From Gemmatimonadota bacterium (lineage in GTDB: Bacteria; Gemmatimonadota; Gemmatimonadetes; Longimicrobiales; RSA9): a stretch of DNA of 64,000 bases. The translations under genes were made by a program, and so were the position numbers. The stretch lies in NCBI GenBank assembly GCA_040905425.1, contig JBBDRO010000032.1, positions 93,730-157,729 on the forward strand, read 5' to 3'. Shown here one piece after another: positions 21,697 to 48,038 of the stretch (the stretch's first letter is position 1; every line of letters starts with the position of its first letter). The notes beneath the pieces are model-generated. The model did no database searches. It saw only the letters and a program-made list of their open reading frames with translations, and was not told the origin of the DNA.

Positions 21697-23589
21697 GTGT
21701 GTGGCCTAGCGGGCTTCGTACGTTCCGGCCCCCCGGAAGGTGCGGGAGCGGGATTCGACGCGTTGCATGCCCTGGCGGGGTGCATGGAGCATCGCGGCCC
21801 CGATGACGTGGGAGTGCGCCTGGCTGCGCTGGCGCCGGGTGGGCCGGCCACGGTCGGGTTGGCCGCGACCCGCCTGGCCGTTCGTGATCCCTCCCCCGCC
21901 GGCCACATGCCCATGGAACGGGACGGGCGCGCGGTGGTCTTCAATGGCGAGATCTACAACGCCGCCACCCTGCGTCCCGAACTGGAGCGCGCTGGCTGGC
22001 GCTTTCACTCGGCCGCCGACACCGAAGTGGTGCTCGCGGGCCTGTCCATCTGGGGTGCGGAAGCGCTGCCGCGATTGCGCGGCATGTTCGCCCTGGCCTT
22101 CCATGACTCCGGCAATGGCGGATCGCTTCTCCTGGCACGCGACCCCCTCGGCATCAAGCCGCTCTACTGGACGTCCGGGCCGCAAGCGGTAGCCTTCGCC
22201 TCCGAGCTGCGTGCCCTGCGGAGTGCGGGCCTGCTGGACGGCCGCCTCTCCTCCCACGCGCTGGGCGCCTTCCTGCTGCTGGGTTCGGTACCCGGTCCGC
22301 TGACCATATACGAGGGGGCCCGGGCGCTGCCGCCCGGCCACCTGCTCCTGATCGGTGAGGACGGGCCCGGCGAGCCACGCCCGTACTGGCATTTCCCCAC
22401 CCTGGAGGACGGGCCCGCTGACGCGGCCGAGGCCGCTGCCACCGTGCGGAGCGCACTGGAGGACGCGGTCGGCACGCACCTGATCAGTGATGTGCCCCTG
22501 GGAGCCTTTCTGAGCGGCGGGCTGGACTCGGCGGCGATCGTGGCGCTCATGCGTCGCGCGCATGACGGTCCGGTGCGGAGCTGCTCGTTGACGGTGCCCG
22601 GCCATGAGGAGGACGAGGGCGCGGCGGCGCGCCGGTCCGCGCAGGCGCTCGGCACCGAGCATCACGAGTGTGCCATTCGCATGGCCGACGTTGTGGGCGC
22701 GGGCGAGCGGATCTTCACAGCGCTCGACCAGCCCTCGATCGATGGTGTGAACACCTGGTTCGTGGCCCGGGCGGCCCGCGAGGCCGGCCTCACCGTGGCC
22801 CTTTCCGGACTGGGGGCGGACGAGCTGTTCGGGGGCTATGACACTACGTTCGTCACGCTTCCCAGACTGCTGCGGACGGTGCGGGTTGCCCATCGGCTTC
22901 CCGGTGCGGCCGCCGTGGGCGCCGGCATGCTCGACGGGCTCGGCACGCAGCGCTGGCGCAAGGTGGCGGATGCGTTGCGGCGGCCGCCCGCGCTGGAGAG
23001 TGGCTATCTGGCCGTGCGGGGACTCTTTGCGCCCGCGGAGGTCGAGCGCATGCTGGAGCCGGGCGTGTGGGACCGCGGCGCGGGCACGCGGCAGGTGCTC
23101 CGCTTCCTGCAGCCGGAGACGGCATCCCCCACTGTGCCGCTCGACTCACGGGTGGCACGCATGGAACTGCACGGCTACACGGCCTGGCAACTGCTTCGGG
23201 ACACGGATGTCATGAGCATGGCGCATGGCCTCGAGGTACGCGTCCCCTTCCTGGATACGGCGCTGGTGGAGACCGTACTGCGCGTGCCGGCCGCGACCCG
23301 CTACGCCGGGGCCGGTACGAAGCCGCTGCTGCGCCGTGCACTGGCCGATCTTCTGCCCGCCGGTGCCGGCAGCGGTCCCAAGCAGGGCTTCACCCTGCCG
23401 CTCGACGCCTGGCTACGCGAGGGGCTGGCCGAGTCCCTGCCGGGCGGGCGGACCGAGTTGCCGCCACCGTTTCGGGCGGGCGTCCTCGGGGATGCCCGGG
23501 CCATGCTGGGTCGCGGCCGGCTGCACTGGTCGCGCCTCTGGGCGCTCGTTGCGCTCCGCTCCTGGTGGGTCCTGACGGAGAATCCATGA
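21697..23589 (+). CDS. Asparagine synthase-like glutamine amidotransferase (polysaccharide-associated)
   Basis: N-terminal MCGLAG (Ntn Cys), HRGPDD, FNGEIYN, RDPLGIKPLY, LSGGLDS, LSGLGADE and EVRVPFLD motifs. Confidence 0.9.
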   Translation: MCGLAGFVRSGPPEGAGAGFDALHALAGCMEHRGPDDVGVRLAALAPGGPATVGLAATRLAVRDPSPAGHMPMERDGRAVVFNGEIYNAATLRPELERAGWRFHSAADTEVVLAGLSIWGAEALPRLRGMFALAFHDSGNGGSLLLARDPLGIKPLYWTSGPQAVAFASELRALRSAGLLDGRLSSHALGAFLLLGSVPGPLTIYEGARALPPGHLLLIGEDGPGEPRPYWHFPTLEDGPADAAEAAATVRSALEDAVGTHLISDVPLGAFLSGGLDSAAIVALMRRAHDGPVRSCSLTVPGHEEDEGAAARRSAQALGTEHHECAIRMADVVGAGERIFTALDQPSIDGVNTWFVARAAREAGLTVALSGLGADELFGGYDTTFVTLPRLLRTVRVAHRLPGAAAVGAGMLDGLGTQRWRKVADALRRPPALESGYLAVRGLFAPAEVERMLEPGVWDRGAGTRQVLRFLQPETASPTVPLDSRVARMELHGYTAWQLLRDTDVMSMAHGLEVRVPFLDTALVETVLRVPAATRYAGAGTKPLLRRALADLLPAGAGSGPKQGFTLPLDAWLREGLAESLPGGRTELPPPFRAGVLGDARAMLGRGRLHWSRLWALVALRSWWVLTENP

Positions 23590-24473: not shown

Positions 24474-25767
24474 CCGAGCGCCGGGGTCCGTGCACGTCCG
24501 TGACCTGAGCAAGCAGTACCTGATCGGCTCCGGCGCACCCGTCATGTACGGCAACCTCAGGGAGCGTCTGGCCGGCCTGGGGCCGGCGCTGTTGCGGCGC
24601 CTGCGCCTGCTGCGCCGCAGCACGAAGGGAGCCGATCCCGGCGAACTCATCTGGGCGCTGCGCGAGGTGAGCTTCGACATTCGTCCCGGGGAGGTGGTCG
24701 GCCTCATCGGGCGCAATGGCGCTGGCAAGAGCACTCTGCTCAAGGTGCTCTCCAGGATCACGGCCCCCTCCGCGGGCTACATCGAGTTCACGGGACGGGT
24801 GGGATCGCTGCTCGAGGTGGGTACTGGGTTTCATGCTGAACTGTCGGGCCGCGAGAACATCTTCCTGAACGGGGCCATCCTGGGTATGAGGCGGGCGGAG
24901 ATCGTGGCCAAGCTGGATGCCATCGTGGAATTCGCGGAGATCGAGCGCTTCGTGGATACACCCGTCAAGCACTTCTCCAGCGGCATGTACGTGCGCCTGG
25001 CCTTCGCCGTTGCGGCGCACATGGAAACGGAAATCCTGTTGGTGGATGAAGTGCTGGCGGTGGGCGACCTGGCCTTCCAGCGCAAGTGCCTGGGCAAGAT
25101 GGGAGAGGTGGCCCGCTCGGGCCGCACCGTGGTCTTCGTCAGCCACAACATGGGCTCCATCGCCCGCCTCTGTGACCGGGGTCTGGTGCTGGACGAGGGC
25201 TGCCTGATCTTCGACGGTCAGGTGGACAGCGCGATCGCCCGTTACAATGACACCTTCGCGGGCCCCGAGTCCGGCCCGGCAGCGCAACGGCACGTGCTAT
25301 TCGACGAGACGCCGGGCCAGGCTGAGCGCTTTGCCGTGAGTCGCGTGGAGGTGCTGGACACGTCCGGGCGTCCCATGCCCGCGCCCCACACCTGGGATGA
25401 CGTGGTGTTGCGGGTCCACTGCCGGTGCCTGGACCGGATCCGGGGCGGCGTGGTCCTGGAGGTCCGGCACGCCAGCGGTCCCCGCGTCCTCTACCTGAGC
25501 ACGGAGCCCGATCGGGGCCAGCCGGTGGTCCTGGAGCGCGGCGCCTGGAGCGTGGACTGCACGGTGCGCAGGCTGCCCCTGGGCGCGGGGGAATACTATG
25601 TGGGCGTGGGGCTCACCATTCCCGGAGTGGAGAACCTGTGGCACCGCGCCGAGGTGGGACGCATGCTCGTCCTGCCCAGGGACGTGTACGGTTCGGGGCA
25701 GGCGCCGGACGCGGCCCGGGGCCTGGTGGTGCCCGAGTACGACTGGTCGCCGCCACGGCGCACGTGA
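24457..25767 (+). CDS. Polysaccharide ABC transporter ATPase with C-terminal domain (Wzt-like)
   Basis: GRNGAGKST, FSSGMYVRLAFA, LVDEVLAVGD and VSH motifs. Wzt_C-type extension. Confidence 0.92.
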   Translation: MPTSSDRAPGSVHVRDLSKQYLIGSGAPVMYGNLRERLAGLGPALLRRLRLLRRSTKGADPGELIWALREVSFDIRPGEVVGLIGRNGAGKSTLLKVLSRITAPSAGYIEFTGRVGSLLEVGTGFHAELSGRENIFLNGAILGMRRAEIVAKLDAIVEFAEIERFVDTPVKHFSSGMYVRLAFAVAAHMETEILLVDEVLAVGDLAFQRKCLGKMGEVARSGRTVVFVSHNMGSIARLCDRGLVLDEGCLIFDGQVDSAIARYNDTFAGPESGPAAQRHVLFDETPGQAERFAVSRVEVLDTSGRPMPAPHTWDDVVLRVHCRCLDRIRGGVVLEVRHASGPRVLYLSTEPDRGQPVVLERGAWSVDCTVRRLPLGAGEYYVGVGLTIPGVENLWHRAEVGRMLVLPRDVYGSGQAPDAARGLVVPEYDWSPPRRT

Positions 25768-27104
25768 AGGTGCTGCACGTGGTCTACGGGTGGCGTCCGG
25801 ACGCGATGGGCGGTACGGAGGTCTACGTGGCGGGCCTGGCCGCGGCACTCGCGAGGCTGGATGTAGCCTCCGTGATCGCGGCGCCCGGGGACGACAGTGA
25901 GGTAGAGAGCGATCAGGGGCCCCTGCAGGTATACCGCTACCGCGCGCCGCCGCCACGCCTGCAGGATCTGTACGGTCATGTGAACACCACCGCTGACGAA
26001 CACTTCGCGGCCATCGTGCGGACGGAGGCCCCGGATGTGGTGCACTTTCACGCGTTCAGCCCCGCAGTGACCCCCGTAATGGCCGCTGGCGCCGCAGAGC
26101 GCGGGGCGGTGGTCCTCACCTACCATACCCCCACCGTCACCTGCCAGCGCGGCTCGTTGCGGCGCTGGGGCCGGATCCCGTGCGATGGTGAGCTGCGGCC
26201 GCGCCGCTGTGCCGCATGCGCGCTGCAGGGAGGCGGGGCGCCCCTGCCGCTGGCGCTGCTGGCCGCATCCGCACCGGCTGTCCTGAGCCGGGCGGTCGAC
26301 GCGGTCGGCCGCTCGGGGGGGGGCTGGACGGCGCTGCGCATGCCCGCGCTGCTGGAAGCACGTCGACGTGCGCTGAGAGCTTTCCTGGCCGCCGCGGACG
26401 CGGTCGTGGCCCCCGTTCCGTGGGCCGTGGACGTGCTGGTCCGCAACGGCGTACCCGCGGCGCGCATAAGCGTCATCTCGCAGGGCGTGCGGGATCATGC
26501 GCTGGCCGTTGCGGATGACCGCGCCGCAGCGGGGCCGGCGCGGGCGCCCGACCATGCTGCGGAGCTGCGGATGGCGTTCCTCGGCCGCCTGGACCCACTC
26601 AAGGGCGCACATGTGCTTGTCGAAGCGCTGGCCCGCGTGCCCCGCGCCGGAGTGACGCTCGATGTGTTCGGTCTACCTACGGGCGCCACGGACTACGTGG
26701 AGCGGCTGAACGCCGCAGCGGCGGCGGACCCGCGCGTGCGGATGGCTCCGCCCGTCGGCGCGGACGGCGTCCTCTCGCTCCTCGGCGATTACGACCTGAT
26801 TGTGGTTCCGTCCCAGGGTGCGGAGACGGGCCCGCTCGTGGTTCTGGAGGCGCAGGCCGCCGGTGTGCCGGTGCTGGGCAGTGCGGTGGGTGGCATTGCC
26901 GATCGGGTGGAGGACGGCCGGGACGGTCGCCTCGTCGCGGACTTCCAGACCCCCGCGGCGTGGGCGCGGGCAATCGCCCATCTGGCAGCGGATCCAGCGC
27001 GGCTCGCACAGCTGCGCGCCGGCCAGCGCCCCCCGCCCACGATGACCGACGCGGCGGCGCGCATGGCCGAGCTCTACCGCACCGTGCTGGCACGGAGGAA
27101 CTGA
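25764..27104 (+). CDS. Glycosyltransferase family 4
   Basis: GGTEVY, FLGRLDPLKG and ETGPLVVLEA motifs. GTGA overlap. Confidence 0.9.
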   Translation: MKVLHVVYGWRPDAMGGTEVYVAGLAAALARLDVASVIAAPGDDSEVESDQGPLQVYRYRAPPPRLQDLYGHVNTTADEHFAAIVRTEAPDVVHFHAFSPAVTPVMAAGAAERGAVVLTYHTPTVTCQRGSLRRWGRIPCDGELRPRRCAACALQGGGAPLPLALLAASAPAVLSRAVDAVGRSGGGWTALRMPALLEARRRALRAFLAAADAVVAPVPWAVDVLVRNGVPAARISVISQGVRDHALAVADDRAAAGPARAPDHAAELRMAFLGRLDPLKGAHVLVEALARVPRAGVTLDVFGLPTGATDYVERLNAAAAADPRVRMAPPVGADGVLSLLGDYDLIVVPSQGAETGPLVVLEAQAAGVPVLGSAVGGIADRVEDGRDGRLVADFQTPAAWARAIAHLAADPARLAQLRAGQRPPPTMTDAAARMAELYRTVLARRN

Positions 27105-28249
27105 TGCGTGTGCTCTTCCTCCAGTTTACCGATCCGGCGGCGCTGCCGCCGCTGCGGCGCGCCATGACCCTCCTGCTGGCACATGGTGCCGCCGTCGACG
27201 CGGTCGGCATCCGGCTTCACGGCGGCAAGGTGATGCCGCTTCTGGAGGATGATCGACTTTCGGTGCACCTCGTGGACCGTACGGCATCCGTGCGCCGCAA
27301 TTACGCACGTTGGTTCCGCCGTACACTGGGCGTGGCGCGGGCCCGGCGCCCTGACTGGCTCTACGCGTCTGACCCGCTCTCCGCACCGGCCGCGCTGGCG
27401 CTGGCGCGCCTGCTTGCCGTCCCCGTCATCTACCATGAACACGACGCCCCGCAACGCTCCGGGCAAGGCGTGCTCGTCCGCCTGGCGGTCCGGGCGCGCG
27501 ACATGCTCGCGCGCCGCGCCGAGCTCTGCGTCCTGCCGTCTGAGGAGCGGCGGCGCTCCCTGGCGGACCATCTGGATGGCCAGATCGCCGCCGTTACGGC
27601 GTGGAACTGTCCGCTACGCACGGAGGTCGGGCCGCCGCGGGCCGCGCCGGACCGATCCCGCTTCCGCATCTGGTATCACGGTTCCCTGGTGCCTGAGCGA
27701 CTGCCGCACGCCTTGCTCGAAGCGCTTGCCGTCCTGCCGGCCGAAGTGACATTCACGTTCGGTGGCTACGAGACCCAGGGAGCGTCGGGATTCACCGCCG
27801 ACTTTCTGGCGCGCGCCGGGCGGATGGGTCTGGAAGGGCGGGTGTTCGCCACAGGCTTCCTGGACCTCGAGGAGCTGCGCGCGCGCATCGGCGAAGCCGA
27901 TCTCGGCTGCGCCTTCGTGGATCCGACCGCCTCGGATACGAACCTGCATTCGTTGGCCGGCGCATCCAACAAGGTCTTCGAGTATCTCGCGGCCGGAGTG
28001 CCGGCGCTGGTTCCGCCGGGCGATGCGTGGCGCGCCCTGGTCGTCGGACCGGGCTACGGGGTGGCCGCGGCGGCGGAAGCGTCCGCCATCGCCGCCGCCG
28101 TGATGGGGCTGATGGACGATCGCCAGGCCACGTATGCCATGGGGGAGGCGGGGCGTCAGCGCATTCTGGCCGCGTGGAACTACGACACGCAGTTTGCGCC
28201 GGTCCTGCGCCGCATGCTGCCGAGCGCCGACGGGGTGGCCGCGCCATGA
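27104..28249 (+). CDS. Glycosyltransferase family 4
   Basis: YHEHD, YHGSL and SNKVFEYLAAGVP motifs. TGATG overlap. Confidence 0.88.
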   Translation: MRVLFLQFTDPAALPPLRRAMTLLLAHGAAVDAVGIRLHGGKVMPLLEDDRLSVHLVDRTASVRRNYARWFRRTLGVARARRPDWLYASDPLSAPAALALARLLAVPVIYHEHDAPQRSGQGVLVRLAVRARDMLARRAELCVLPSEERRRSLADHLDGQIAAVTAWNCPLRTEVGPPRAAPDRSRFRIWYHGSLVPERLPHALLEALAVLPAEVTFTFGGYETQGASGFTADFLARAGRMGLEGRVFATGFLDLEELRARIGEADLGCAFVDPTASDTNLHSLAGASNKVFEYLAAGVPALVPPGDAWRALVVGPGYGVAAAAEASAIAAAVMGLMDDRQATYAMGEAGRQRILAAWNYDTQFAPVLRRMLPSADGVAAP

Positions 28250-29238
28250 GCGCCCCCCGCGTGGTCATCGCCGGACAGGCGGGCGGGACCCACGTAGGCT
28301 CCAGTCTGCTCCGCGCGGCACACGAGCTGGGCATGGACGCGTGGCTCCTCGACGCGGCGCGTGCGTATGCCGGTCCGCGGCTGGTGCGCAGCATGGCCTG
28401 GCGCGTGGCACGGCGGGCGCCCCGCGGGCGCCGTTTCGGCGTGGAGCTCCTGCGCATGGTGAAGGAGCGCGCGGCCGACCTGGTGCTGGCAGTCGGGCTG
28501 GGTCCCATTGATTCGACGGTGCTGCGCGAGCTGGGTGAGCATGGCGTGCGCCGCGTGGCGTTCCTCACCGACGATCCGTGGAACCCGGCGCTCTGCGGAC
28601 CCCGGTGGCGCAGGACTCTGCCGCAGTATGATCGGGTCTTCACCACGCGCACGGCCAATCTCGTGGATCTGCGCGCTGCGGGGTGCGGCCGGGTGAACTG
28701 GCTGCCGTTCGGCTACGATCCCGTCCTGTTCCGGCCGCCCACCGAGCGGCCGGCGGAGGATCACGACGTGGTCTTTGCCGGCGGGGCCGACGCCGATCGG
28801 GCGCCGGTGTTCGCGGCGTTGGCCGACGCGGGTTTCAGTGTGGCCCTCTATGGCGGGTACTGGAATCGGTTCCGTGGGACCCGCGCGCTGGCGCGGGGCC
28901 ATGCGGAACCTGCCGCGTTGCCCGGCATTCTGGCGGCGGGCCGCGTGGCGCTGTGCCTGGTCCGGCGCGCCAACCGGGACGGCCATGCCATGCGTTCCCT
29001 GGAGCTGCCCGCCGTGGGTACGTGCATGCTCGTGGAGGACACCCCGGAGCATCGGGTGCTCCTGGGAGAGGACCGGGAAGCCGTGGTCTACTTCAGTGAC
29101 GCGCCGTCCATGCGGGCACGTCTGACGGAGCTCCTGGAGGCTCCCGCCGAGCGCCGCCGACTGGCGGCGGCCGTGCACGCTCGGATCACCGCCGGCGGAC
29201 ACACGTATCGCCAGCGCCTGCTGGCCCTCGTGTCGTGA
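28246..29238 (+). CDS. CgeB-like glycosyltransferase (GT-B)
   Basis: FLTDDP, LPFGYDP, MRSLELPAVG and HTYRQR motifs. Confidence 0.82.
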   Translation: MSAPRVVIAGQAGGTHVGSSLLRAAHELGMDAWLLDAARAYAGPRLVRSMAWRVARRAPRGRRFGVELLRMVKERAADLVLAVGLGPIDSTVLRELGEHGVRRVAFLTDDPWNPALCGPRWRRTLPQYDRVFTTRTANLVDLRAAGCGRVNWLPFGYDPVLFRPPTERPAEDHDVVFAGGADADRAPVFAALADAGFSVALYGGYWNRFRGTRALARGHAEPAALPGILAAGRVALCLVRRANRDGHAMRSLELPAVGTCMLVEDTPEHRVLLGEDREAVVYFSDAPSMRARLTELLEAPAERRRLAAAVHARITAGGHTYRQRLLALVS

Positions 29239-29245
29239 GGCGCCG

Positions 29246-30421
29246 TTGAGAATCGCCATCGTGGTGCATGGCCGCTTCCATGCATTCGATCTGGCGCGGG
29301 CGCTCCGCCGCCGTGGCCATGATGTGCTGGTGGTGACGAATCTGCCTCAGCGGCGCGCCGCCGCCTGGGACTTGCCGCGCGCCGCAATCCGTTCGCTGCC
29401 CGTGGAGGGTGCTATCAACGCCGTGGCGGCCCGGGCCGGCGCCAGTGTGTATGCCGCGCTCGACGCGCCCCTGCACCTCTGGTTCGGACGCTGGGCCGCG
29501 CGCCGCCTCCTGCCCGGCCCCTGGGACCTGGTGGTGGCCTTCAGTGGCGTGGCCGCCGAGACGCTCCTGCTGGCCCGCCGCCATGGCTGGCCGACGCTCT
29601 GCACGCGCAGCTCCGCCCATATTCGCGTGCAGGATCGCATCCTGGCCGAGGAGGAGGCGCGCACGGGCCGCCGCATACAGCGACCCACTCGCTGGAAGAT
29701 CGAGCGCGAGGAGAGGGAGTACGGCCTGGCTACCGCGGTTCAGGTGCCGTCCACGTTCGTGCGGGGTACCTTCCAGGAGATGGGGGTGCCGCTGGAGCGC
29801 ACGCTGCTCGTGCCGCTGGGCGTGGAGGTGGCGGACTTTCGAGCGTCGGCACAGGTGCTTGCCGCGCGGCTGGCCCGGATCGAGGAAGGCCAGCCGCTCC
29901 GGGTTCTTTGCGCGGGGAGTCTGTCTCTGCGGAAGGGTATGTATGACCTTGCCGCGGCTGTCCAGCGCCTGCCGGACGGAGTCTTCCAATTCCATCTGGT
30001 GGGTGACGTGACCCGTGCCGCCAGATCTTGGGTGGACGCAATGCGAGACCGCATCCGCATCACTTCTCGGGTCCCACAGGAAGAGTTGCCGGGAATCTAC
30101 GAGGAGGCTGATGTCCTGGTCCTGCCCACCCTGGAGGACGGCTTCGCGGTGGTGCTGGCGCAGGCGCTGGCCGCGGGCGTCCCGATCGTCACCACACCCC
30201 ATTCCGCCGGACCTGACCTGGTGGAGGAGGGGCGCACCGGCTGGATCGTCCCGGTCCGTGATCCCGAGGCGCTGGCGGCACGCTTGCTGGCGCTGCACCA
30301 TGACCGGCCACTGCTCGCGGCCGCCGTGCGGGCGTTGGCGGAACGTCCCGGGCTGCGCGATTGGGACGACATGGCCGCGGATTACGAACGATTCGCACGT
30401 GCCATGAAGGAAAGCGGCTGA
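29246..30421 (+). CDS. Glycosyltransferase family 4
   Basis: GSLSLRKG and PTLEDGFAVVLAQALAAGVP motifs. Confidence 0.9.
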   Translation: MRIAIVVHGRFHAFDLARALRRRGHDVLVVTNLPQRRAAAWDLPRAAIRSLPVEGAINAVAARAGASVYAALDAPLHLWFGRWAARRLLPGPWDLVVAFSGVAAETLLLARRHGWPTLCTRSSAHIRVQDRILAEEEARTGRRIQRPTRWKIEREEREYGLATAVQVPSTFVRGTFQEMGVPLERTLLVPLGVEVADFRASAQVLAARLARIEEGQPLRVLCAGSLSLRKGMYDLAAAVQRLPDGVFQFHLVGDVTRAARSWVDAMRDRIRITSRVPQEELPGIYEEADVLVLPTLEDGFAVVLAQALAAGVPIVTTPHSAGPDLVEEGRTGWIVPVRDPEALAARLLALHHDRPLLAAAVRALAERPGLRDWDDMAADYERFARAMKESG

Positions 30422-39632: not shown

Positions 39633-39648
39633 GCACGGGACAGTGGCC

Positions 39649-41997
39649 ATGACGAACCTGAACGGGCCTCCAGCCGGACCGGTACTGCCGGCGTCCGATG
39701 GCCCTGCCGCGCCACCGCGGGTGCGCGAGCATCTGCATGTCCTCAGGCGGCGCTGGTGGATCGTGGCGCTCGTGGCCGTGGCGCTCGTGGCGGGGTCCTG
39801 GTGGCGGCAGCGGGGGCAGGTGCCGCACTACCAGGCCGTGGCATCGGTGAAGACCTCTCCGTACGCGGGTGATTTTCTCAGTGGCGGTTATGCGGCTTGG
39901 TTGGCCAGTGATCCGGCCCAGCTGGCCACACAGGTGCGCATCATCCGCACCCAGGGCGTCCTCGCGCCTGTCGTGGATTCCCTGGGACTGCGCTTTCAGG
40001 TGGAGGGATCCGAATACCAGTTCCACGACGTAGTGGATCGTGCACTCGTGGCGCCGGGCGCACCATCGCAGGGCTATCAGTTGACTTCCGAGCAGGGCCT
40101 GATCGTGTTGCAGGAGCGGGGCACCGGGCGGACGGTGGACGTAGCCTCGGCCCATGTGCTGATCGGTCCCGGGCTGACCCTGTTCCTGAACCCGGACTTC
40201 ACTCCGCCGCAGCCGGTGGCAGTGGCGGTTGTCAGCGCCGACGCGGCGCTCGGGAGGCTGCGCGGCGGCCTGGATGCCTCCCTGGCCCGCAACAGCGTCC
40301 TCATCGACATCGCGTACACGTCGCCCGACTCCATCATGGCGGCGCGCGTGGCCCAGCAGGTGGCCGAGCAGTATCGGTGGCACGCCGGAGGAGAGCTGCG
40401 CCGGAAGGCTCAGGAAACGCTGGACCTGGTGCGCGCCCAACGTGCCGAGTTGGAAGGCACGATGAGCGAGCGGCTCACCGGCGGGTCGGGCGGCAGTTCC
40501 GTCGCGTCGATCTTCGAGCAGAATCTCATGGGCATCGGGGACGCGGAGGCGTCGGCCCGTACGTACGCGGGGCAGGCGGCGATCGTGAGCAGAGCGGTGG
40601 GCATCTATGAGAACACGGGCAACATCGCCGTCCTGACCGCGCTCGGCGAGTTAGTGCCCGGCGCCAGCAGCCTCTACGACCGCCTTGCCGTCCTGCAGCG
40701 GGACCGTCAGCAGGCCATCGAGGATCGCGGTCCGGGCCCGGCCGTGGCCACGTACGACACGCTCATCGTTGCCGCGCGCGATCAGCTGGCCGATCAGGCG
40801 GCGCAGCGGCTGCGTGTGCTCGAGCAGCAGGAGCAAGCGGCTGTGGCCGAGGCCATTCGGTTGCGGCGCGAACAGGACGCGCTCCGTCCCCAGGTGGCCG
40901 TCTCGCAGGGCGTGGACCGGGAGTTGCTGGCGCTCCAGGAGCGGCAGCGCATGCTCTACGAGGAGGAGTTTGAGGCGGAGGTCGAGGCGGCCATCGAGGG
41001 TAGCCCGGTCGAGATCGTCCAACCAGCCGTAGTACCCACGGTGCCGCTGCCCCAGCGTCGCACGCGGACCCTGCTCCTGTCGCTCGTGCTGGGGCTGGCG
41101 CTCGGCATGCTCGCCGCCTTGCTGCTGGAACAGCTCGACACCCGGGTGCGGGACCCGGAGGACGTGCAGCGGTCCGCGGGGGTCGGCGTGATCGGCTTGA
41201 TCCCCGCGCTGCGCGAATCGTCCGGGGGGCGGCCGCTGGCGCTCTCCCAGGCGGAGCAGCAGACGGCCGGTGCGGAAGCATTCCGCAAGCTGCGCACGAA
41301 CCTGCGCTTCATCCGCGCGGAGCGGCCGCAGGTGGTGGCCGTCACCAGCGCGGGCCCGCACGAGGGCAAGAGCGTGCTCTCCGCGAACCTTGCTCTTGCG
41401 CTCGTGCAGCAGCGCTCCCGGGTGCTCCTGGTGGACGGGGACCTGCGCCGTCCGGTGCAGCACACGATCTTCGGACTGAAGCGTGACCCGGGGCTGTCGG
41501 ACGTGCTGGTGGGCATCCTGCCGCCCACCCAGGCCATTCGCAAGGACGTGCAGATCCCCGGGCTCTACGTCATGCCCTGCGGCACCGAGGCGCCGAATCC
41601 GTCGGAACTACTGGGCAGCGAGGAGTTCGTGAATCTACTCAACCAGATGCGCAAGCATTTCGACACCATCATCCTGGACACACCGCCCGTGAACCTGGTG
41701 AGTGACGCCGCCATCGTATCCACGGTGGCCGATGGCACGCTGGTGGTGGTGGACGCCGGCCGCACGGATCGGCACGTGCTGGCCAGTGCCGTGAACGAAT
41801 TGCGGCAGGCGCGGGCCACCCTGCTGGGGGTGGTGCTGAACCGGGTCGACAGCCGGTCGGCCTATGGATACGGATACGGACGCTTCGGACGCTATTATCG
41901 CTCGGGGTACTACAAGACCGAATCCGCGGCCAACGGGGACCGGGAGTGGCGGGAGACGCTCGACTCGCTGTGGCAACAGGTCTCCCCCTACGTCTGA
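39649..41997 (+). CDS. Polysaccharide co-polymerase / BY tyrosine kinase (Wzc-like)
   Basis: Two TM helices and a coiled coil. EAFRKLRTN, TSAGPHEGKS, LVDGDLRRP and DTPP motifs. C-terminal Tyr cluster YGYGYG..YY..YY. Confidence 0.93.
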   Translation: MTNLNGPPAGPVLPASDGPAAPPRVREHLHVLRRRWWIVALVAVALVAGSWWRQRGQVPHYQAVASVKTSPYAGDFLSGGYAAWLASDPAQLATQVRIIRTQGVLAPVVDSLGLRFQVEGSEYQFHDVVDRALVAPGAPSQGYQLTSEQGLIVLQERGTGRTVDVASAHVLIGPGLTLFLNPDFTPPQPVAVAVVSADAALGRLRGGLDASLARNSVLIDIAYTSPDSIMAARVAQQVAEQYRWHAGGELRRKAQETLDLVRAQRAELEGTMSERLTGGSGGSSVASIFEQNLMGIGDAEASARTYAGQAAIVSRAVGIYENTGNIAVLTALGELVPGASSLYDRLAVLQRDRQQAIEDRGPGPAVATYDTLIVAARDQLADQAAQRLRVLEQQEQAAVAEAIRLRREQDALRPQVAVSQGVDRELLALQERQRMLYEEEFEAEVEAAIEGSPVEIVQPAVVPTVPLPQRRTRTLLLSLVLGLALGMLAALLLEQLDTRVRDPEDVQRSAGVGVIGLIPALRESSGGRPLALSQAEQQTAGAEAFRKLRTNLRFIRAERPQVVAVTSAGPHEGKSVLSANLALALVQQRSRVLLVDGDLRRPVQHTIFGLKRDPGLSDVLVGILPPTQAIRKDVQIPGLYVMPCGTEAPNPSELLGSEEFVNLLNQMRKHFDTIILDTPPVNLVSDAAIVSTVADGTLVVVDAGRTDRHVLASAVNELRQARATLLGVVLNRVDSRSAYGYGYGRFGRYYRSGYYKTESAANGDREWRETLDSLWQQVSPYV

Positions 41998-42295: not shown

Positions 42296-42305
42296 ACGGC
42301 CAGTC

Positions 42306-43310
42306 TCACCCCTCCAGGAACGCCACCAGGGGGTGGTCCGGCTGACTGCGGGTCGGCTGTCCGAACCCCGCGGCGAGCAATAGCTCGGCCACGGTCCCCG
42401 TCTGCCACTCCGCCGCCTGCAGGGCGAGTACCCCACCCGGCTGGAGGTACTCCGCGGCCCGCGGAATGAAACCCCGCAGCAACGCCAGGCCGTCCTGACC
42501 GCCTCCGCTCATGGTCTCCGCCGGCGCGAGCCAGAGGCGGCCACGGGCACGTTCCGCCGCCAGTAACACGGGTGGGAGCCAGGGCAGGTTGGCCGCGATC
42601 AGGTCCACCGTTCCAGCAAGCTCCCGGGGCAGCGGCTCCAGCAAAGACCCCCGCAGGAAGACGGCCCGCTGCAGGTCGAGTCGTCGTGCGTTGGCGCGGG
42701 CGGCCCGGCATGCGCGCGCGGAGGTGTCCGTGCCCCAGACCCGGGCGCGTGGCCGGTAACGCGCCAGCGCCAGGGCCACCGCCCCGCCGCCCGTCCCCCC
42801 GTCCACGGCGCGGGTCTCCCTGTCCGGATCCAGGTGGGCGAGCGCCGTCTTTGCCAGCAGTTCCGTGGTGGGGTTGGGCGCGAAGACGCCGGGCGGGATG
42901 ATCAGGTCAAGGTCCATGAAATGTACGCTGCGCCGGCGTTGCCCGGCCAGGCCAGCACGCAGCAGGGCCGCGATATGGTGGAGGCCATACTGCGCGCGGG
43001 CGGCCCATGGCGCCCCTACACCGATGGGTATCAGCTCGAGCGGCACGCCCTCCCTGATGAGGGCGGCGTCGGCCGGGTCCGCTGAGGGCTGCCAGCCCGC
43101 GGCGCGCAACGCCGCCCGGGCGGGGAGCAGCGCCGCCACCGCCACCTCCACGCGAATCTTCTCCGGATCCTCGGGCGTACGCGCTTCCACCCCCGCGGCG
43201 CGCAGGGCAGCGGCGGCCACCCTCCGCTCGGCACGAACGCGGAGCTGCCACGCCGCCCGCAATCGTGGCAGCGAGAAGCCGGAAGATTCCGGGGAGGCGG
43301 TGTGGGTCAT
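42306..43310 (-). CDS. PrmC/HemK-like SAM methyltransferase with atypical N-terminal domain
   Basis: GVFAPNPTTELL, VDGGTGGGAVALALA, GTDTS, ANLPW (an NPPY variant) and GG.DGL motifs. Confidence 0.85.
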   Translation of the reverse strand: MTHTASPESSGFSLPRLRAAWQLRVRAERRVAAAALRAAGVEARTPEDPEKIRVEVAVAALLPARAALRAAGWQPSADPADAALIREGVPLELIPIGVGAPWAARAQYGLHHIAALLRAGLAGQRRRSVHFMDLDLIIPPGVFAPNPTTELLAKTALAHLDPDRETRAVDGGTGGGAVALALARYRPRARVWGTDTSARACRAARANARRLDLQRAVFLRGSLLEPLPRELAGTVDLIAANLPWLPPVLLAAERARGRLWLAPAETMSGGGQDGLALLRGFIPRAAEYLQPGGVLALQAAEWQTGTVAELLLAAGFGQPTRSQPDHPLVAFLEG

Positions 43311-43371
43311 GATCGGCCAAGGAGCTCGGGTGGCGTTGACCTGAGCGGGCATTTCAAGCTACCGTCCATGC

Positions 43372-43824
43372 ATGCCCTCGCGCACCCCACCCCGCGCCGC
43401 CGAAAGGTGGCCGTTGCGCCGCCTGCTGGCACTGCCACGGATCGAGCGGCGGCTGCTGCTGCGCGCTGCGTGCGCACTATTCCTGGCCCGACGCGCGCTC
43501 CACCCGGTTCGTCGGCGTACGCCATCCCTCCTGGAAACGCGACCGGTGGTGTCCGGTAGGGTGGCCGGTGTCGAACCCGTGGCCGTGGCACTTGCGGTGA
43601 GCCGCGCCGGCCGTTATCTGCCGGGCGAGTGGACCTGCCTCGAGCAGGCGCTGGCGGGGCGCACCCTGCTTGCGGCGTTTGGCAGATCTTCCCGGGTGCG
43701 GCTCGGAGCCGCACGCTCCGCCCCCGGCGGGCAGCGCTTCCATGCCTGGCTCGAATGTGATGGGGTCGTGGTTCTGGGCGGCGATCAGCCGCGCGCCTAC
43801 GTGCCGCTGGACGCACGGCCCTGA
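43372..43824 (+). CDS. Lasso peptide leader peptidase B2 (transglutaminase-like)
   Basis: TCLEQALA (catalytic Cys), VRLG and FHAWLECDG (catalytic His) motifs. 150 aa. Confidence 0.92.
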   Translation: MPSRTPPRAAERWPLRRLLALPRIERRLLLRAACALFLARRALHPVRRRTPSLLETRPVVSGRVAGVEPVAVALAVSRAGRYLPGEWTCLEQALAGRTLLAAFGRSSRVRLGAARSAPGGQRFHAWLECDGVVVLGGDQPRAYVPLDARP

Positions 43825-43859
43825 GGGCCCTCCCTGCGCGCCACGCCACCGGCGCGCCC

Positions 43860-45008
43860 GTGAATCCCACCGATCACCTGCCCCTGCTCGCGGCCGCCGC
43901 GGCCCCGGGTGCCGCCGCGCGGGTGCGCTTCCACCGCCTGGCCGGGTCACTGGATCCGGAGCAGTGGCCTGCGGTGCTCGATGCCGCGGAGCGCCACCGG
44001 CTGCGTCCGCTGCTCCACCGTGCGCTCCAACGTACGACCGGCCTGGTCCCTTTTGCGGCGCAGGAATCCCTGGCCGAGGCGGTGCGCCACGACGCCGTCC
44101 TGGCGCTGGCCGCGCTCCGCGAGGGCCGGGCGGCGGCCGCGCTCCTGGCAGAGGCGGGAATCGCCTCGCTGGCGCTGAAGGGGCCGGTGCTGGCGTGCGC
44201 CCTCCACGGGGACCCTGCGCTGCGTGCCGCCGGGGACTTCGACCTGCTGGTGGCGCGGCGCCATGCCGCCCGCGCCGGCGCGCTGCTGGCCGACGGGGGC
44301 TGGGCGTGCGCCGTTCACCTGACGCCCCGGATGGCCGCCTCCCACTTGCGCACGCAGCATGAGCTGCCGTTTCGCCGGGGCGCGGCGCCCGTCCTGGAAC
44401 TCCACTGGGCCGTGGCCCAGCGGCACTGGGCGGTGCCGCTCGCGGCCGAGGCACTCCTGACGCGTGCACAGCCGGCGGGCCCGGGAGAAGCCTTCGGCCA
44501 GCCGAGCACGGAGGACCGGCTCCTGCTGGCGTGTATCCACGGGGCGCGGCACCGCTTCGCCACGCTGGACCTGCTCGCGGACGTGGCGGGCTGCGTGGCC
44601 CTCGGCGGCATCGACTGGAACAGGCTGTGGGCGGAAGCGGAGCGCGCGGGGGTGCGGCGCATTGTGGCCGTGGCGCTGGCCGTGGCGGAGCGCACCATGG
44701 ACGCCCGCCTGCCTGCCGCGGCCGGACGGCCGTTGTCGATAGATCGGACCGGAGGCCTGCTGGCCGCGCGGGCCGCGGAGCGCCTCGAGCGGGGCGTCGG
44801 CCCCGTGACCGGGTGGCGCGGGTTACGGGCCGAGTTGCTACTGCGCGAGCGCCGCGCGGACCGGGTACGCCGCCTGGGGCGGCTCGCGCTCACCCCTACC
44901 GCCGGGGACTGGGGCTGGGTGCGCCTGCCGGACCCCCTCCATCCGCTCTACCACGCGCTCCGTCCGGTCCGCCTGCTGGGTGTGGCCTGGGGTCGTCTGC
45001 GCAGCTGA
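43860..45008 (+). CDS. Nucleotidyltransferase (NTP_transf_5 family), lasso-cluster associated
   Basis: LALKGPVL, R..GDFDLLV, LELHW and C.HG.RH....L..L.D motifs. Confidence 0.88.
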   Translation: MNPTDHLPLLAAAAAPGAAARVRFHRLAGSLDPEQWPAVLDAAERHRLRPLLHRALQRTTGLVPFAAQESLAEAVRHDAVLALAALREGRAAAALLAEAGIASLALKGPVLACALHGDPALRAAGDFDLLVARRHAARAGALLADGGWACAVHLTPRMAASHLRTQHELPFRRGAAPVLELHWAVAQRHWAVPLAAEALLTRAQPAGPGEAFGQPSTEDRLLLACIHGARHRFATLDLLADVAGCVALGGIDWNRLWAEAERAGVRRIVAVALAVAERTMDARLPAAAGRPLSIDRTGGLLAARAAERLERGVGPVTGWRGLRAELLLRERRADRVRRLGRLALTPTAGDWGWVRLPDPLHPLYHALRPVRLLGVAWGRLRS

Positions 45009-45016
45009 GGACGCGC

Positions 45017-45967
45017 TCAGCGCTCTGCCGGCACCTCCACCAACGCCGCCACCCGCGCGGCAAAGCCCGGCAGCAACTCCAGTCCCCGGGGCGGCCGGGC
45101 GTGCCACACGGGAATCCGTGCCGCGCAGGCGGCGGCGGCCAGTTGACGGCGCAGGCGGTCCGGGTCCGTGACCACCCGGTTGAAGGTGGCCGCGAGGAGT
45201 GCGCGGACCGCCTGCCCCCCCCGGACCCGCTCGGGCGGGCCGCCCCTGTCCCCGGGGAGAGCGAGTGTCACCCATGCCCGGAGCGGCACGTCCGTCCGCA
45301 CGGCGCGGGGCACGGCGTACGCCCGCTTGGCGCTGTCCGGATGGAGGAGGACGCTGGCGCTTGACGGCAGTCCCAGAAGCAGCTCCGCAGCCTCCGGAAA
45401 CAGCTTCAAGCGCGCGGGTCCGGCGCGGGCCATCCGGCTGCCGGGGGCCAGCACCAGGACATCATCCGTCACGAGCCGGCCGCCGGCGGCCAGGAGCGCC
45501 GCGGCCAGCGTGGACTTGCCCACGCCCGGGGGGCCGGTGAGCGCCACGGCTCCCGCAGGCAGTGCCACCACCGTGGCGTGATAGGGCTCCAGGCCGCGTG
45601 CCACGAGGGAGAAGGACAGGAGCTGGGCATAGAGGTAGCCCGCCAGGGCGGCAGGCGCCGCGGGGGCCAGCGGGGCCACGCGGAGGCGGGCTCCGGCCGG
45701 GTCCGTGCGCGCCAGCAGCAGGTCGCGCCAGCGGAGCAGGAAGCCACCGTCCGCCGTGTCCTGCCAGGCCGCGTCCCCCATGACCCGCCACGCATCGTTC
45801 GTCGGCTGCAACCCCGCCGCCGGCACGGCGCGGATCACCACGTCCGGAGGGCCCTCCTCGAAAGCGGCGTCGGGGAAGGGCCACGGGCTCTCCACGGAGA
45901 GGCCGTAGACGCGGAAGCGGTGGGCGGCTGAAGGCGGACGGGGTGCGGACGTTGCGGGACGCCTCAG
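45017..45967 (-). CDS. HPr-kinase-like Ser/Thr kinase (lasso tailoring)
   Basis: FRVYGL N-terminus, YHATVV, Walker A GPPGVGKST, LVTDD. Start uncertain (CTG 45967 or GTG 46078). Confidence 0.85.
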   Translation of the reverse strand: MRRPATSAPRPPSAAHRFRVYGLSVESPWPFPDAAFEEGPPDVVIRAVPAAGLQPTNDAWRVMGDAAWQDTADGGFLLRWRDLLLARTDPAGARLRVAPLAPAAPAALAGYLYAQLLSFSLVARGLEPYHATVVALPAGAVALTGPPGVGKSTLAAALLAAGGRLVTDDVLVLAPGSRMARAGPARLKLFPEAAELLLGLPSSASVLLHPDSAKRAYAVPRAVRTDVPLRAWVTLALPGDRGGPPERVRGGQAVRALLAATFNRVVTDPDRLRRQLAAAACAARIPVWHARPPRGLELLPGFAARVAALVEVPAER

Positions 45968-46143
45968 AAGCGCGTGAACCCGCCGCCGGTCTTGGAGGGC
46001 TGCTCCTTGCTGGCGCCGCCCCCGCCGCGGGTGAGTTCCGCCAGGTCCCCCCAGCGCGTCAGGGTCGGCCGGACCCACGGCTTGAGCGGACGCTCCGGGC
46101 CGGGGGATGCCTCACGCGCCGGCGGTTCGGGTGCTTCGGCCAT
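45964..46143 (-). CDS. Lasso peptide precursor (59 aa)
   Basis: MAEAPEPPAREASPGPERPLKPWVRPTLTRWGDLAELTR|GGGGASKEQPSKTGGGFTRF. WxxPxL..xG....T(-2) leader, Gly1 and Glu8. GGAG RBS. Starts 2 bp after the cyclase stop. Confidence 0.9.
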   Translation of the reverse strand: MAEAPEPPAREASPGPERPLKPWVRPTLTRWGDLAELTRGGGGASKEQPSKTGGGFTRF

Positions 46144-46145
46144 GC

Positions 46146-48038
46146 TCACTCCAGGGGATCCGACGTGACGAAGGCGCGCAGCCAGAGCTCCAGGCCCAGG
46201 GCCGCGAGGAGCGGAGCCGCGGCGCGCGTACGTCCAATTTCGCTGGCCGCGTGCAGCCGCGCCAGTTCCGCGTCCAGTCCGGCGGTGTCCAGGTAGCCGG
46301 CCCGCACGGCTGCGCCGTGGCTCAGCAGGCGCGCGAGTGGCTCGGCGGCCCCGGCCATGGCTGCATGAAACAGACCGGTGGCGTTGCCCTTGTCGCGGCG
46401 GGCCAGGATGGCGTCGGGCACGATGCCCCGCAGCCCGTCCCGCAGGATGCCCCGGGGGACCCCCTGCGGTGCCGCGGCCGTGCCGGGAAGCCCCGCCAGG
46501 AAGACCAGCAGGTCCTCGTCGGCGAAGGGCGGCAGGAGCGTGAGGCCGTGCGCGGCGCATCCCTTGACGCCCCATTCCATACGCAGCGTGTTGAAGGGCA
46601 GTCGCACCGCTTCCAGGACGGCTGCGCCGTGGGAGCTGATGCCGCGTACGGCCGCCGCTTGCCGGTCGCCGGTGCCCGCTGGCGCGGCCGCATCCGGCGG
46701 CGTCGGGCTGGTCCCATGCGGCAGCCGTGCCGCGCGGAGGCGCTCACCCCAGAGGGAGCTGCCCTTCCGCCGCTGTCGGAGCGGTGCCAGCAGTGCCCGG
46801 CGCGCCCGCAGCAGACGTCCGGGCAGCAGCTGGCGCGCCAGTTCCTCCAGTGCGGCCCGATGCAGCACGGCGGCGGGGACGTCCGCGTGCCAGCGCGGCA
46901 TCTCCAACAGGTGCCGCGCCAGGGTGGGAAGCCGCCCGGCGCGGAGCAGTTCGGCCAGGTAGGCGGGCGGATTCGGAAACAGCACCTGGTCCCCGAGTCC
47001 GCCGGACAGGATGATTGCCGCCCCGTGCTCGCGGGCCGCCGTGAGCGCACGGGTGGCCGGGCCGGGGGCAAAGCCCACTGCCGGTGCCTCGCTCTCCAGG
47101 ACCTCGTCCATGGACTCGGCCGGAAAGCCGCCCGGCTCCGCCGGCACGCGTATCACCGCCTCACCCCAGCGCTCCTCCAGGACCCGGAGCCAGGCTGTCT
47201 CATCGGCCGCCGAGCCGTCCGCGGTGCCGTGATAGACGCCGAAGGCCGGCGGGAAGCGCGCAGGATCGCGGGCGTGCAGCATGCGCGCCACGCTGTAGAC
47301 GGCGGACGAGTCGATGCCGCCGGAGAGCAACACGGCCACCGGTGCGGGACCCACCAGGCGGCGGGCGACCGCCGCTACGAAACGATCGCGGAACGAGATG
47401 GCCGCGGCTGCCGGATCCAGTTGCAGGGCCGGGACCTGAAACGCCCGCGCCCGATCGATGTTCAGGCCCCGTTCGTGGGCCAGCAGATAGTGGCCGGGGG
47501 GCAGCGCCCGGACCTCCTTCAGGAACGTGACCGAGGCCGGGAAGGTACGCGTGCCCAGGAAGAGTTCGGCCAGCGCGGGGTCATCCGGCGTGCGGTCCAC
47601 CGCGCCGTGCGCCAGCACGGCCCGCACGGTCGTGGCGAACACCACGCCTCCCGGTAGCTCCGCCCAGTAGAGCGGCCGGGTGCCGACCAGGTCTCTGGCC
47701 AGCAGCAGCCTACCGTCGGCGATCACGGCCAGGGCATAATCACCGCGCAGCTCCGCGGCGAGCGTCGCGCCGCTCGTGCGCAGCGCGGCGGGCAGGGAGT
47801 CGGCCGCGCCCGCCAGGCGGCCCGAGAGTGCCCACGCCTCCCCTGGCTGAGCCGTCCCTACGGATGACGGTCCGTTGCTCCAACCGCTCCACGGACCGGG
47901 GGCAGTGGCCAGGCCCGCACCGGGCAGCAAGGCGATGCCGGCTGCCGATCCGCCTGGCAGAGCCGCGGCCATGCGCTCGAGTGCGGCGGGGTCCACGGCC
48001 CGGCCGTGGCCGTACCAGATGCCTGCGAATGCGCTCAA
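46146..48038 (-). CDS. Lasso peptide cyclase (asparagine synthetase-like, C protein)
   Basis: Starts MSAFAGI with no Ntn Cys. RDLVGTRPLY, LLSGGIDSS, LSGGLGDQ, PF.D..L and R.ILR....G.VPD.I..R.DK motifs. Adjacent to the precursor. Confidence 0.9.
   Translation of the reverse strand: MSAFAGIWYGHGRAVDPAALERMAAALPGGSAAGIALLPGAGLATAPGPWSGWSNGPSSVGTAQPGEAWALSGRLAGAADSLPAALRTSGATLAAELRGDYALAVIADGRLLLARDLVGTRPLYWAELPGGVVFATTVRAVLAHGAVDRTPDDPALAELFLGTRTFPASVTFLKEVRALPPGHYLLAHERGLNIDRARAFQVPALQLDPAAAAISFRDRFVAAVARRLVGPAPVAVLLSGGIDSSAVYSVARMLHARDPARFPPAFGVYHGTADGSAADETAWLRVLEERWGEAVIRVPAEPGGFPAESMDEVLESEAPAVGFAPGPATRALTAAREHGAAIILSGGLGDQVLFPNPPAYLAELLRAGRLPTLARHLLEMPRWHADVPAAVLHRAALEELARQLLPGRLLRARRALLAPLRQRRKGSSLWGERLRAARLPHGTSPTPPDAAAPAGTGDRQAAAVRGISSHGAAVLEAVRLPFNTLRMEWGVKGCAAHGLTLLPPFADEDLLVFLAGLPGTAAAPQGVPRGILRDGLRGIVPDAILARRDKGNATGLFHAAMAGAAEPLARLLSHGAAVRAGYLDTAGLDAELARLHAASEIGRTRAAAPLLAALGLELWLRAFVTSDPLE

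Follow-up and report, generated by a model that had tools for sequence, protein, structure and literature searches.

The stretch of DNA considered here (the window) is a 64,000-nucleotide (nt) segment of contig JBBDRO010000032.1 from a Gemmatimonadota bacterium of soil or sediment, and it carries an exopolysaccharide (EPS) operon that runs directly into the genes of a lasso peptide cluster. The two systems meet at B1, which is a PqqD-type recognition element (RRE) for peptides that are made on the ribosome and modified after translation (RiPPs), that is, a leader-peptide chaperone, and the gene of which follows immediately behind wzc. We regard it as likely that B1 is the terminal, translationally coupled cistron of the EPS operon and that its supply gates lasso maturation, so that the tailored peptide would be made together with the polysaccharide. 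Judged by comparison of genomes, the production of peptide and polysaccharide is probably switched on together. On this comparison the predicted co-expression is well supported, because the wzc-B1 pair is kept in relatives even where the other lasso genes sit elsewhere.

When the EPS operon is transcribed, B1 would be made as its last product, and without transcription of the operon there would be no B1. B1 would be needed for cleavage of the leader by the peptidase B2 and, by analogy with the Bsf cluster of Bradymonas sediminis, also for efficient phosphorylation of the peptide by the kinase. In the available part of the report on that cluster, the kinase BsfK phosphorylates Ser3, and BsfB1 has two effects, accelerating the kinase and helping B2 (PMC10368454). 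The supply of B1 would therefore gate every leader-dependent step, and the tailored lasso peptide would appear with the polysaccharide. Possible reasons for such a coupling are a covalent peptide-phosphate-sugar link, export of the peptide by the EPS route, or co-regulation in a matrix-producing state.

For most lasso peptides the role in the producing organism is not known, and the clusters that encode them are usually regarded as self-contained units. Here an essential lasso part, the RRE, is placed in a polysaccharide operon and is kept there even where the remaining parts lie dispersed. Software that mines genomes for compact clusters would overlook the split lasso clusters of the relatives or score them wrongly. 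The arrangement also gives a concrete lead on lasso function, as production would be tied to the synthesis of matrix or capsule.

The wzc-B1 junction and its conservation

The wzc gene ends with TGA at 41995-41997. Past wzc, the PqqD frame offers its first start codon at 42005, a GTG, and B1 begins there. The spacer between them is 7 nt long (GGTCGGC), and GAGG is present at 41996-41999. An earlier reading of the window by a model (the sequence-only reading) had placed the RRE gene 7 bp past the wzc stop on the same strand, which is exact. The best NCBIfam match of B1 is the lasso PqqD chaperone model NF033536 (56.9 bits, E 1.7e-15, below the cut-off of 80). Its closest homologues (48-54% identity) are ordinary lasso RREs adjoining B2, cyclase or kinase genes; a word-based protein search with B1 returned only two clusters and was of no help for context. 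B1 lies on the same strand as wzc, the junction is short (a 1-nt overlap in relatives) and no terminator-like site intervenes. These features support the assignment of B1 as the predicted last cistron of the EPS operon, and we infer that it is co-transcribed with, and translationally coupled to, wzc.

Positions 38000-50000 are spanned whole by contigs of two sequencing runs, both possibly source samples, and a 2109-base contig from a third run of the same study matches 40285-42393 with zero differences. Because contigs from several runs agree, the junction is not an artefact of one sample's assembly.

The genome of the window (G000, in which the window lies on contig C32) is 4.12 Mb in size and 96.7% complete. 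The 73 genomes of its family in the Longimicrobiales were searched with B1; matches were found in 35, and the context of the 12 best loci was examined. In four of the 73 genomes, from three genera, wzc is directly followed by B1: G000 itself, G016 and G461 of one genus, and G443 of another. At the remaining eight of the 12 loci, B1 lies beside B2, cyclase, kinase or PF14907 genes or has no recognised neighbour, and Wzc is present at none. The four genomes share the gene order FAD (flavin adenine dinucleotide) reductase, Wza, Wzc, B1 ... Trm112-like, TPR, AMP-binding, with a receiver protein on the opposite strand in the window, G443 and G461. In the three relatives the ATG of B1 overlaps the wzc stop by 1 nt (TGATG in G443 and G016, TAATG in G461). 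The sequence-only reading had taken B1 for the probable last cistron of the glycan operon, and the comparison backs this proposal. It had also counted absence of the linkage in relatives among the results that would speak against it; the linkage is present, and it recurs in unrelated lineages (see below).

The block from methyltransferase to cyclase that stands between B1 and the receiver gene is found in the window only among the four. In G016, G461 and G443, kinase, precursor and cyclase are on contigs other than that of wzc-B1, and those contigs carry no PqqD gene. One contig of G016 carries the methyltransferase, an open reading frame (ORF) of 472 aa, PF14907, kinase, precursor and one end of the cyclase, beside genes for an amino-acid permease and a LytTR two-component pair; a 2.3-kb contig holds the remainder of the cyclase. 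G461 has methyltransferase, kinase, precursor and cyclase together on one contig, and G443 has precursor and cyclase on one contig and kinase, PF14907 and B2 on another. The whole of G016 (95% complete) holds only one PqqD gene, and in G443 one passes the cut-off. An orthologue of the cyclase (E<=1e-30, in a search that scored part of the first-look candidates) is found in four of the 73 genomes, the same four that carry wzc-B1. The top-tier Wzc proteins (E<=1e-150, 41-44% identity) come from these four genomes too, and at the three Wzc loci ranked next (G459, G031, G033) wzc is not followed by B1. G016 is marked as unpublished; G443 and G461 by themselves lead to the same conclusions. A metagenome contig (L161) with 90-95% amino-acid identity carries carbamoyltransferase, Bac_transf, FAD reductase, Wza, Wzc and B1 with the same 7-nt spacer, followed by the methyltransferase on the opposite strand and B2.

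A different lasso cluster lies inside an EPS locus of another family member (L066, G012:C1:24000-43999, about 15294-16575 on the minus strand). All its genes are on one strand, in the order Bac_transf, WecG/TagA-type glycosyltransferase, B1, B2, cyclase (divided between two frames), kinase, PF14907, S8 peptidase, Wza, Wzc. The WecG gene is frameshifted, and its frame then runs into the PqqD domain without a stop. A fusion of glycosyltransferase and RRE could explain this, as could an indel error in the assembly.

EPS genes near B1 in other phyla

In a sample of the phylum comprising 401 genomes, 55 have a B1 match, and the 29 best non-self loci, two of them from genomes marked as unpublished, were viewed with 1.5-kb flanks. 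At all 29 the neighbours are those of an ordinary lasso cluster, and Wzc is absent from these flanks. A cross-phylum set consisted of 80 B1-centred loci with 10-kb flanks, taken from one-per-species genomes of many phyla (1.25 Mb examined). Wzc-type genes are present in 20 of the 80 loci. About 0.6 would be expected from the two Wzc loci per 4.12 Mb in the genome of the window, which makes an enrichment of about 30-fold. Most Wzc matches extend over the periplasmic and kinase parts or, at the minimum, over the GNVR segment plus the kinase part; two matches cover less. Wza and Bac_transf are found in seven loci each, and any of the three in 27 of the 80. Control genes taken from the window behave as follows: the response regulator is found in two loci (7.9 expected), the M23 peptidase in none and AMP-binding in three, all of these hits being family loci. 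ABC (ATP-binding cassette) ATPase matches are present in 14 of the 80 loci, and kinase homologues adjoin B1 in 47. Among 80 metagenome contigs, most of them short and together 0.52 Mb long, five carry Wzc, three Bac_transf and one Wza.

Among the 37 loci with full flanks, an EPS hallmark (Wzc, Wza or priming transferase) is present in 16 of the 29 that carry the kinase or PF14907 (13 with Wzc), versus none of the eight that carry neither. Fisher's test gives p 0.006, which makes the case look stronger than it is, since related loci do not count as independent. Seven phyla are represented among the EPS-linked loci (Gemmatimonadota, Acidobacteriota, Chloroflexota, Planctomycetota, Actinomycetota, Bacteroidota and Cyanobacteriota), and by arrangement these loci fall into roughly ten groups. 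These counts suggest that the link between kinase/PF14907 lasso clusters and EPS loci is general across phyla.

Same-strand adjacency of wzc and B1 is found outside the family in L225, in L163/L179 and in L142, that is, in at least three unrelated contig lineages. In L225 the junction reads TAA, one base, ATG, and the protein encoded upstream contains the domains Wzz, GNVR and P-loop; the gaps are 32-56 nt in L163/L179 and 61-73 nt in L142, from a Chloroflexota metagenome-assembled genome (MAG). In an Anaerolineae MAG (L135) a single strand carries GT4, Bac_transf, GT4, an unassigned ORF, a bacterial tyrosine kinase (BY-kinase) and a PD40 protein, then the lasso genes (B1, B2, cyclase, kinase, ABC transporter, PF14907), then GT2 and GT4. 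In a Bacteroidota MAG (L123, 2525-12395) the order is carbamoyltransferase (50% identical to that of the window), epimerase, GT4/Bac_transf fusion (49%), VanZ, FAD protein, B1, B2, cyclase. The sub-order that L123 shares with the window (carbamoyltransferase, Bac_transf, FAD protein, B1) hints that EPS and lasso genes may be passed between phyla together, in a single block.

Two close PqqD-type genes, resembling a tandem RRE, were seen in L079, L082, L162, L164, L168, L169, L176, L149 and L225.

Gene content and predicted tailoring of the peptide

The G+C content of the window is about 70%. Genes were picked by third-position G+C and family scans; Pfam was run on 58 ORFs across the whole window, and NCBIfam/TIGR models were also used (Table 1). 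The EPS operon comprises 16 tightly packed plus-strand genes (21520-41997) and ends with wza and wzc; the sequence-only reading had the region start at 21697, slightly inside its first gene. The last gene encodes a Wzc-type BY-kinase (polysaccharide co-polymerase type 2a, PCP-2a) that combines a periplasmic Wzz/GNVR part with a P-loop kinase domain and has a C-terminal tail rich in Tyr (...AYGYGYGRFGRYYRSGYY); the Wzz (23.6 bits, cut-off 25.5) and GNVR (21.2 bits, cut-off 27.7) scores are both slightly under their cut-offs.

Table 1. Genes of the EPS operon, the lasso cluster and the conserved flank (window coordinates)
Feature	Position	Strand	Evidence
AsnB-type glutamine amidotransferase, first gene of the operon	21520..23589	+	TIGR01536 362 bits (cut-off 267); PF00733; GATase_7
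Wzm, ABC-2 permease	from 23067, true start probably later	+	PF01061 74 bits
Wzt, ABC ATPase	24457-25767	+	PF00005 75.7 bits; Wzt_C weak, 21.3 bits, below cut-off
Six GT4-type and one GT2 glycosyltransferases	within 25425..35097	+	Pfam GT1/GT4/GT2 matches
Wzy-like membrane protein, weak call	30361-31803	+	PF14296 E 0.0019; TIGR04370 E 0.0033
Carbamoyltransferase	35100..36830; open frame from 34326, domains from residue 260	+	PF02543 206 bits; PF16861 232 bits
Priming sugar-phosphate transferase (Bac_transf)	36873..37709	+	PF02397 176 bits
FAD-dependent protein, geranylgeranyl-reductase family	37714..38925	+	TIGR02032 E 7.6e-38, below cut-off; PF01494
Wza-like polysaccharide export protein	38922..39632	+	PF02563 50.5 bits; SLBB 45.4 bits
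Wzc-type chain-length regulator and tyrosine autokinase	39643..41997	+	TIGR01007 183 bits (cut-off 108)
B1, PqqD-type RRE (leader-peptide chaperone), 96 aa	42005..42295	+	PF05402 58.6 bits (cut-off 23.4)
HemK/PrmC-like methyltransferase	42306..43352	-	TIGR03534 E 3e-35, below cut-off; HemK PDB structures E 2.7e-16
B2, lasso leader peptidase (transglutaminase-like Cys protease)	43372..43824	+	NF033537 63.6 bits (cut-off 33); PF13471 60.5 bits (cut-off 26)
PF14907 nucleotidyltransferase-fold tailoring enzyme (PsmN/BsfN type)	43860..45008	+	PF14907 155.7 bits (cut-off 31.2)
Putative HPr-kinase-like peptide kinase, start uncertain	45017..45962	-	PF07475 23.7 bits (cut-off 33.3); TIGR04352 37.5 bits (cut-off 200)
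Precursor peptide, 59 aa	45964..46143	-	NF033521 21.6 bits (cut-off 19)
Lasso cyclase (Asn-synthase-like), TTG start	46146..48038	-	PF00733 119.9 bits (cut-off 21)
Receiver-domain protein, conserved flank, outside the lasso set	48271..49116	-	PF00072 84.8 bits
Trm112-like zinc-ribbon protein, conserved flank (Trm112-like, TPR, AMP-binding)	49256..49942	+	NF038101 27.2 bits, below cut-off; synteny G016, G443, G461

Downstream of wzc lies a complete lasso set of the kinase/nucleotidyltransferase type: B1, HemK-like methyltransferase, B2, PF14907 transferase, putative kinase, precursor and cyclase. As its genes include a precursor, the RRE B1, the peptidase B2 and a cyclase, the window, judged by gene content, holds a genuine class-II-type lasso cluster with predicted kinase/nucleotidyltransferase tailoring, the threaded topology of the product being a prediction. 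The cyclase matches NF033535 with 131 bits (E 4.4e-38), below the strict cut-off of 525. The methyltransferase is convergent with B1 across a 10-nt gap, and its orthologues adjoin lasso genes in G016 and G461. As for the kinase, it has the P-loop GPPGVGKS, and HPr kinases in the PDB match it marginally (E 0.005-0.09). Between the stop of the precursor and the conserved N-terminal RVYGL, its frame offers neither ATG nor GTG nor TTG (45880-46080, minus strand); the start is either a non-canonical codon (CTG overlapping the precursor stop) or GTG at 46078, with a 115-nt overlap with the precursor gene.

The sequence-only reading had described cyclase, precursor and kinase as converging from the other strand, and these minus-strand genes do converge on B2 and PF14907. 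The genes it listed are real, but its inventory left out B2, the PF14907 gene and the HemK-like methyltransferase. It was also right about the missing peptide exporter and isopeptidase: the Pfam scans found no ABC_membrane-type exporter and no Peptidase_S9 (isopeptidase) among the 58 ORFs, and the ABC parts of the window are confined to Wzm/Wzt and to an ABC_tran and ABC_tran_2 pair at 55861-58849. The latter pair follows a gene for a transglutaminase-core protein (PF01841, not of the lasso B2 type) in a segment, 54363-58849, about 6 kb past the lasso genes, and nothing ties these genes to the lasso cluster. A second compact lasso set is present in the same genome (contig C93, about 4404-6845, minus strand) with an Asn-synthase-like gene, B2 and a PqqD gene, the product of which is 33% identical to B1 of the window.

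The receiver-domain protein also follows B1 in G443 and G461, where no lasso genes intervene. The Trm112-like protein adjoins wzc-B1 in all four genomes, and the HemK-like methyltransferase moves together with the lasso enzymes. As Trm112 is known to activate its partner methyltransferases of the HemK2/Mtq2 type, the two proteins might cooperate.

The precursor of the window has the leader ...KPWVRPTLTRWGDLAELTR with the motif PWVRPTL and Thr at position -2, followed by a core beginning GGGGASKE, in which residue 8 is Glu. The four orthologous cores are GGGGASKEQPSKTGGGFTRF in the window and GGGGRRAEPSKRQTRF, GGGGTMAEGHPVHSPQTKI and GGGGTLREPITKRRTRF among the orthologues of G016, G461 and G443. 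Gly1 and Glu8 are present in all four, which implies a predicted Gly1-Glu8 macrolactam ring in the window peptide, and the leaders keep a YxxPxL-type RRE motif. The core of the window ends in FTRF and the orthologues in QTRF, RTRF and QTKI. None of the four has a terminal Ser, so that the conserved C-terminal Ser acceptor of the paeninodin type is absent from the window core; a Ser or Thr in the ring is not conserved, and a Thr lies three residues from the C-terminus in all four. By analogy with known lasso kinases, this conserved Thr is probably the phosphate acceptor. According to the accessible portion of PMC9266682, PadeK, ThcoK, SyanK and PsmK act on a C-terminal Ser, and PsmN attaches one or two hexose units to phospho-Ser in the lasso peptide pseudomycoidin. 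The PF14907 enzyme of the window would then extend the phosphorylated peptide at the phosphate.

The structure model of the PF14907 protein has a predicted local distance difference test (pLDDT) score of 92, and G108, D126, D128, H227 and H231 are invariant in 31 of 31 sequences (the G...DxD and HxxxH columns). Foldseek relates the model to the Pol-beta-type nucleotidyltransferase fold, with the toxin-type MenT1 as best match (E 5e-4) and ANT(2'')-Ia, LnuA and FKRP after it; a sequence search of the PDB gave no relative. The predicted fold fits nucleotidyl or phospho-alcohol transfer, without deciding between them.

Precursors at other loci were collected with our own regular-expression motif scan, which is not exhaustive. 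They have the same type of leader, and many of them, spread over several phyla, carry a basic-Thr motif at the C-terminus (RTGF, RTGY, NKTG, KTG, SKTG), including those of L079, L082, L096, L097, L100, L112, L133, L138, L139, L144 and L151. Four Thermoanaerobaculia precursors end in IYS or AYS. These sequences suggest two acceptor types within the kinase/PF14907 precursor family.

Alternative explanations and known systems

The main rival to coupling is a neutral accident. A mobile lasso cluster would have landed 3' of the EPS operon, and B1 would have stayed because it was already expressed enough there, without any functional tie. Several observations weigh against coupling, and some of them speak for such an accident. 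The lasso enzyme block (44001-48000) has a G+C of 0.75-0.77, while that of the EPS operon is 0.68-0.73, a difference in keeping with a separate origin of the block. The orthologous cluster is sporadic in the family, and all the other B1 loci sampled in the phylum are ordinary lasso clusters. The exact arrangement is found in just four genomes from three genera of one family, which are kin and not independent. A quick tree of B1 (91 rows, 90 columns) is largely unresolved and does not place the four wzc-linked B1 proteins in one group; it neither shows nor excludes a single origin for them. The three relatives are fragmented MAGs, in which location on another contig shows only non-adjacency to B1. 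G461 and G000 have two PqqD genes each, the second elsewhere in the genome. A promoter and terminator scan of 38500-49500 gave no promoter-like site and three terminator-like sites versus 2.4 expected, none of them at wzc-B1, although such a scan is weak evidence and is uninformative either way for an organism of high G+C. As to the survey, EPS loci and biosynthetic clusters both favour variable regions, which could inflate their co-location, and the eight loci that lack kinase and transferase make a small control group. However, an accident does not account well for a stop/start overlap that is conserved in two further genera, for the perfect co-occurrence of wzc-B1 with the orthologous cyclase, for the adjacency in unrelated contigs, or for the enrichment of EPS hallmarks around B1 and their restriction to loci with kinase or PF14907. 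We therefore consider it unlikely.

There are two further rivals. B1 may also serve the EPS machinery itself, perhaps by binding the Tyr-rich tail of Wzc or some other peptide encoded there, and this second role, rather than lasso maturation, would keep it by wzc. B1 does stay with wzc while the lasso enzymes move, and stop/start overlap would be typical of partners made in a fixed ratio. Still, its closest homologues are ordinary lasso RREs, the wzc-B1 pair is confined to genomes with the orthologous cyclase, and the precursor leaders retain the RRE motif, so that such a role seems very improbable. The other idea is a covalent link. The phosphopeptide would be the acceptor for the PF14907 enzyme and for the glycosyltransferases of the operon, and a phosphodiester-linked glycopeptide would leave by the EPS export machinery. 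The hexosylation of phospho-Ser by PsmN (PMC9266682, in the part available) is in line with this, as are fold matches of the model to transferases that form phosphodiester or nucleotidyl bonds, including FKRP (probability 0.97-0.99) and ANT(2'')-Ia, the lack of an exporter in the cluster, and the glycosyltransferase genes that flank the lasso genes of L135 on one strand. However, the argument is one from analogy and fold rather than chemistry, many EPS-linked relatives carry an ABC exporter in the lasso cluster (L135; see also the ABC ATPase counts above), and the fold matches are weak and silent on the group transferred. A covalent link appears to us rather improbable. The sequence-only reading had joined co-regulation with the notion of a lasso peptide acting as glycan carrier, primer or matrix component that could leave by Wzm/Wzt or Wza/Wzc; it is partly supported, in that the genome comparison favours co-regulation of maturation and glycan synthesis. 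For the chemical part the one pertinent finding is the published precedent of a PF14907-type enzyme that transfers hexose to a phosphorylated lasso peptide (PMC9266682). On a more speculative note, kinase/PF14907-tailored lasso peptides may form a distinct class that is tied to the polysaccharide matrix and not to killing, with the phospho-Thr tail as the attachment point for sugar and the RRE behind wzc as the coupling device; the recurrent junction would then mark an undescribed peptide-glycan conjugate system. We hold this broader proposal to be doubtful.

The polysaccharide genes of the window are those of familiar systems: Wza/Wzc-type (group-1-capsule-like) and Wzm/Wzt-type loci share with it Bac_transf, glycosyltransferases, a Wzy-like protein, Wza, the Wzc autokinase and the ABC-2 pair. 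To our knowledge, no locus of either type has been reported to have a RiPP recognition element as its last cistron, and the open-access literature searched gave no paper linking lasso clusters to EPS operons. The HPr-rel-A system of NCBIfam (TIGR04352 kinase A, TIGR04353 chaperone) resembles the window in combining a PqqD-family chaperone with an HPrK-related kinase. Membership in these equivalogs was rejected (37.5 versus 200 bits for TIGR04352, 23.6 versus 35 bits for TIGR04353).

Among lasso systems, the paeninodin type (PadeK, ThcoK, SyanK) has, like the window, split B1/B2 proteins, an Asn-synthase-like cyclase and an HPr-kinase-like kinase (putative in the window) acting on the precursor, as far as the consulted part of PMC9266682 describes it. 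The kinases of this type modify a conserved C-terminal Ser, whereas the four cores of the window family end in TRF or TKI. Moreover, paeninodin-type clusters are self-contained, while that of the window is without an ABC exporter and has its B1 in another operon. Pseudomycoidin (PsmK, PsmN) shares with the window the tailoring pair of a kinase (putative in the window) and a gene annotated as nucleotidyltransferase (excerpts of PMC9266682 and PMC6993621). Unlike the window, it comes from a Firmicute cluster and has a C-terminal Ser acceptor, and these excerpts mention no link to a polysaccharide operon. The Bsf cluster (BsfK, BsfB1, BsfB2, BsfN, BsfD) is, like that of the window, Gram-negative and carries kinase and nucleotidyltransferase genes. 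In the portion of PMC10368454 at hand it has its own ABC transporter and its B1 inside the cluster, unlike the window. Leader position -2 is Ile in Bsf and Thr in the window. Finally, as is predicted for the window, the phosphorylated residue of Bsf is not the C-terminal one; it is Ser3 in the same portion. In the four cores of the window family no ring Ser or Thr is conserved, and the hydroxyl residue that is conserved is the Thr near the C-terminus.

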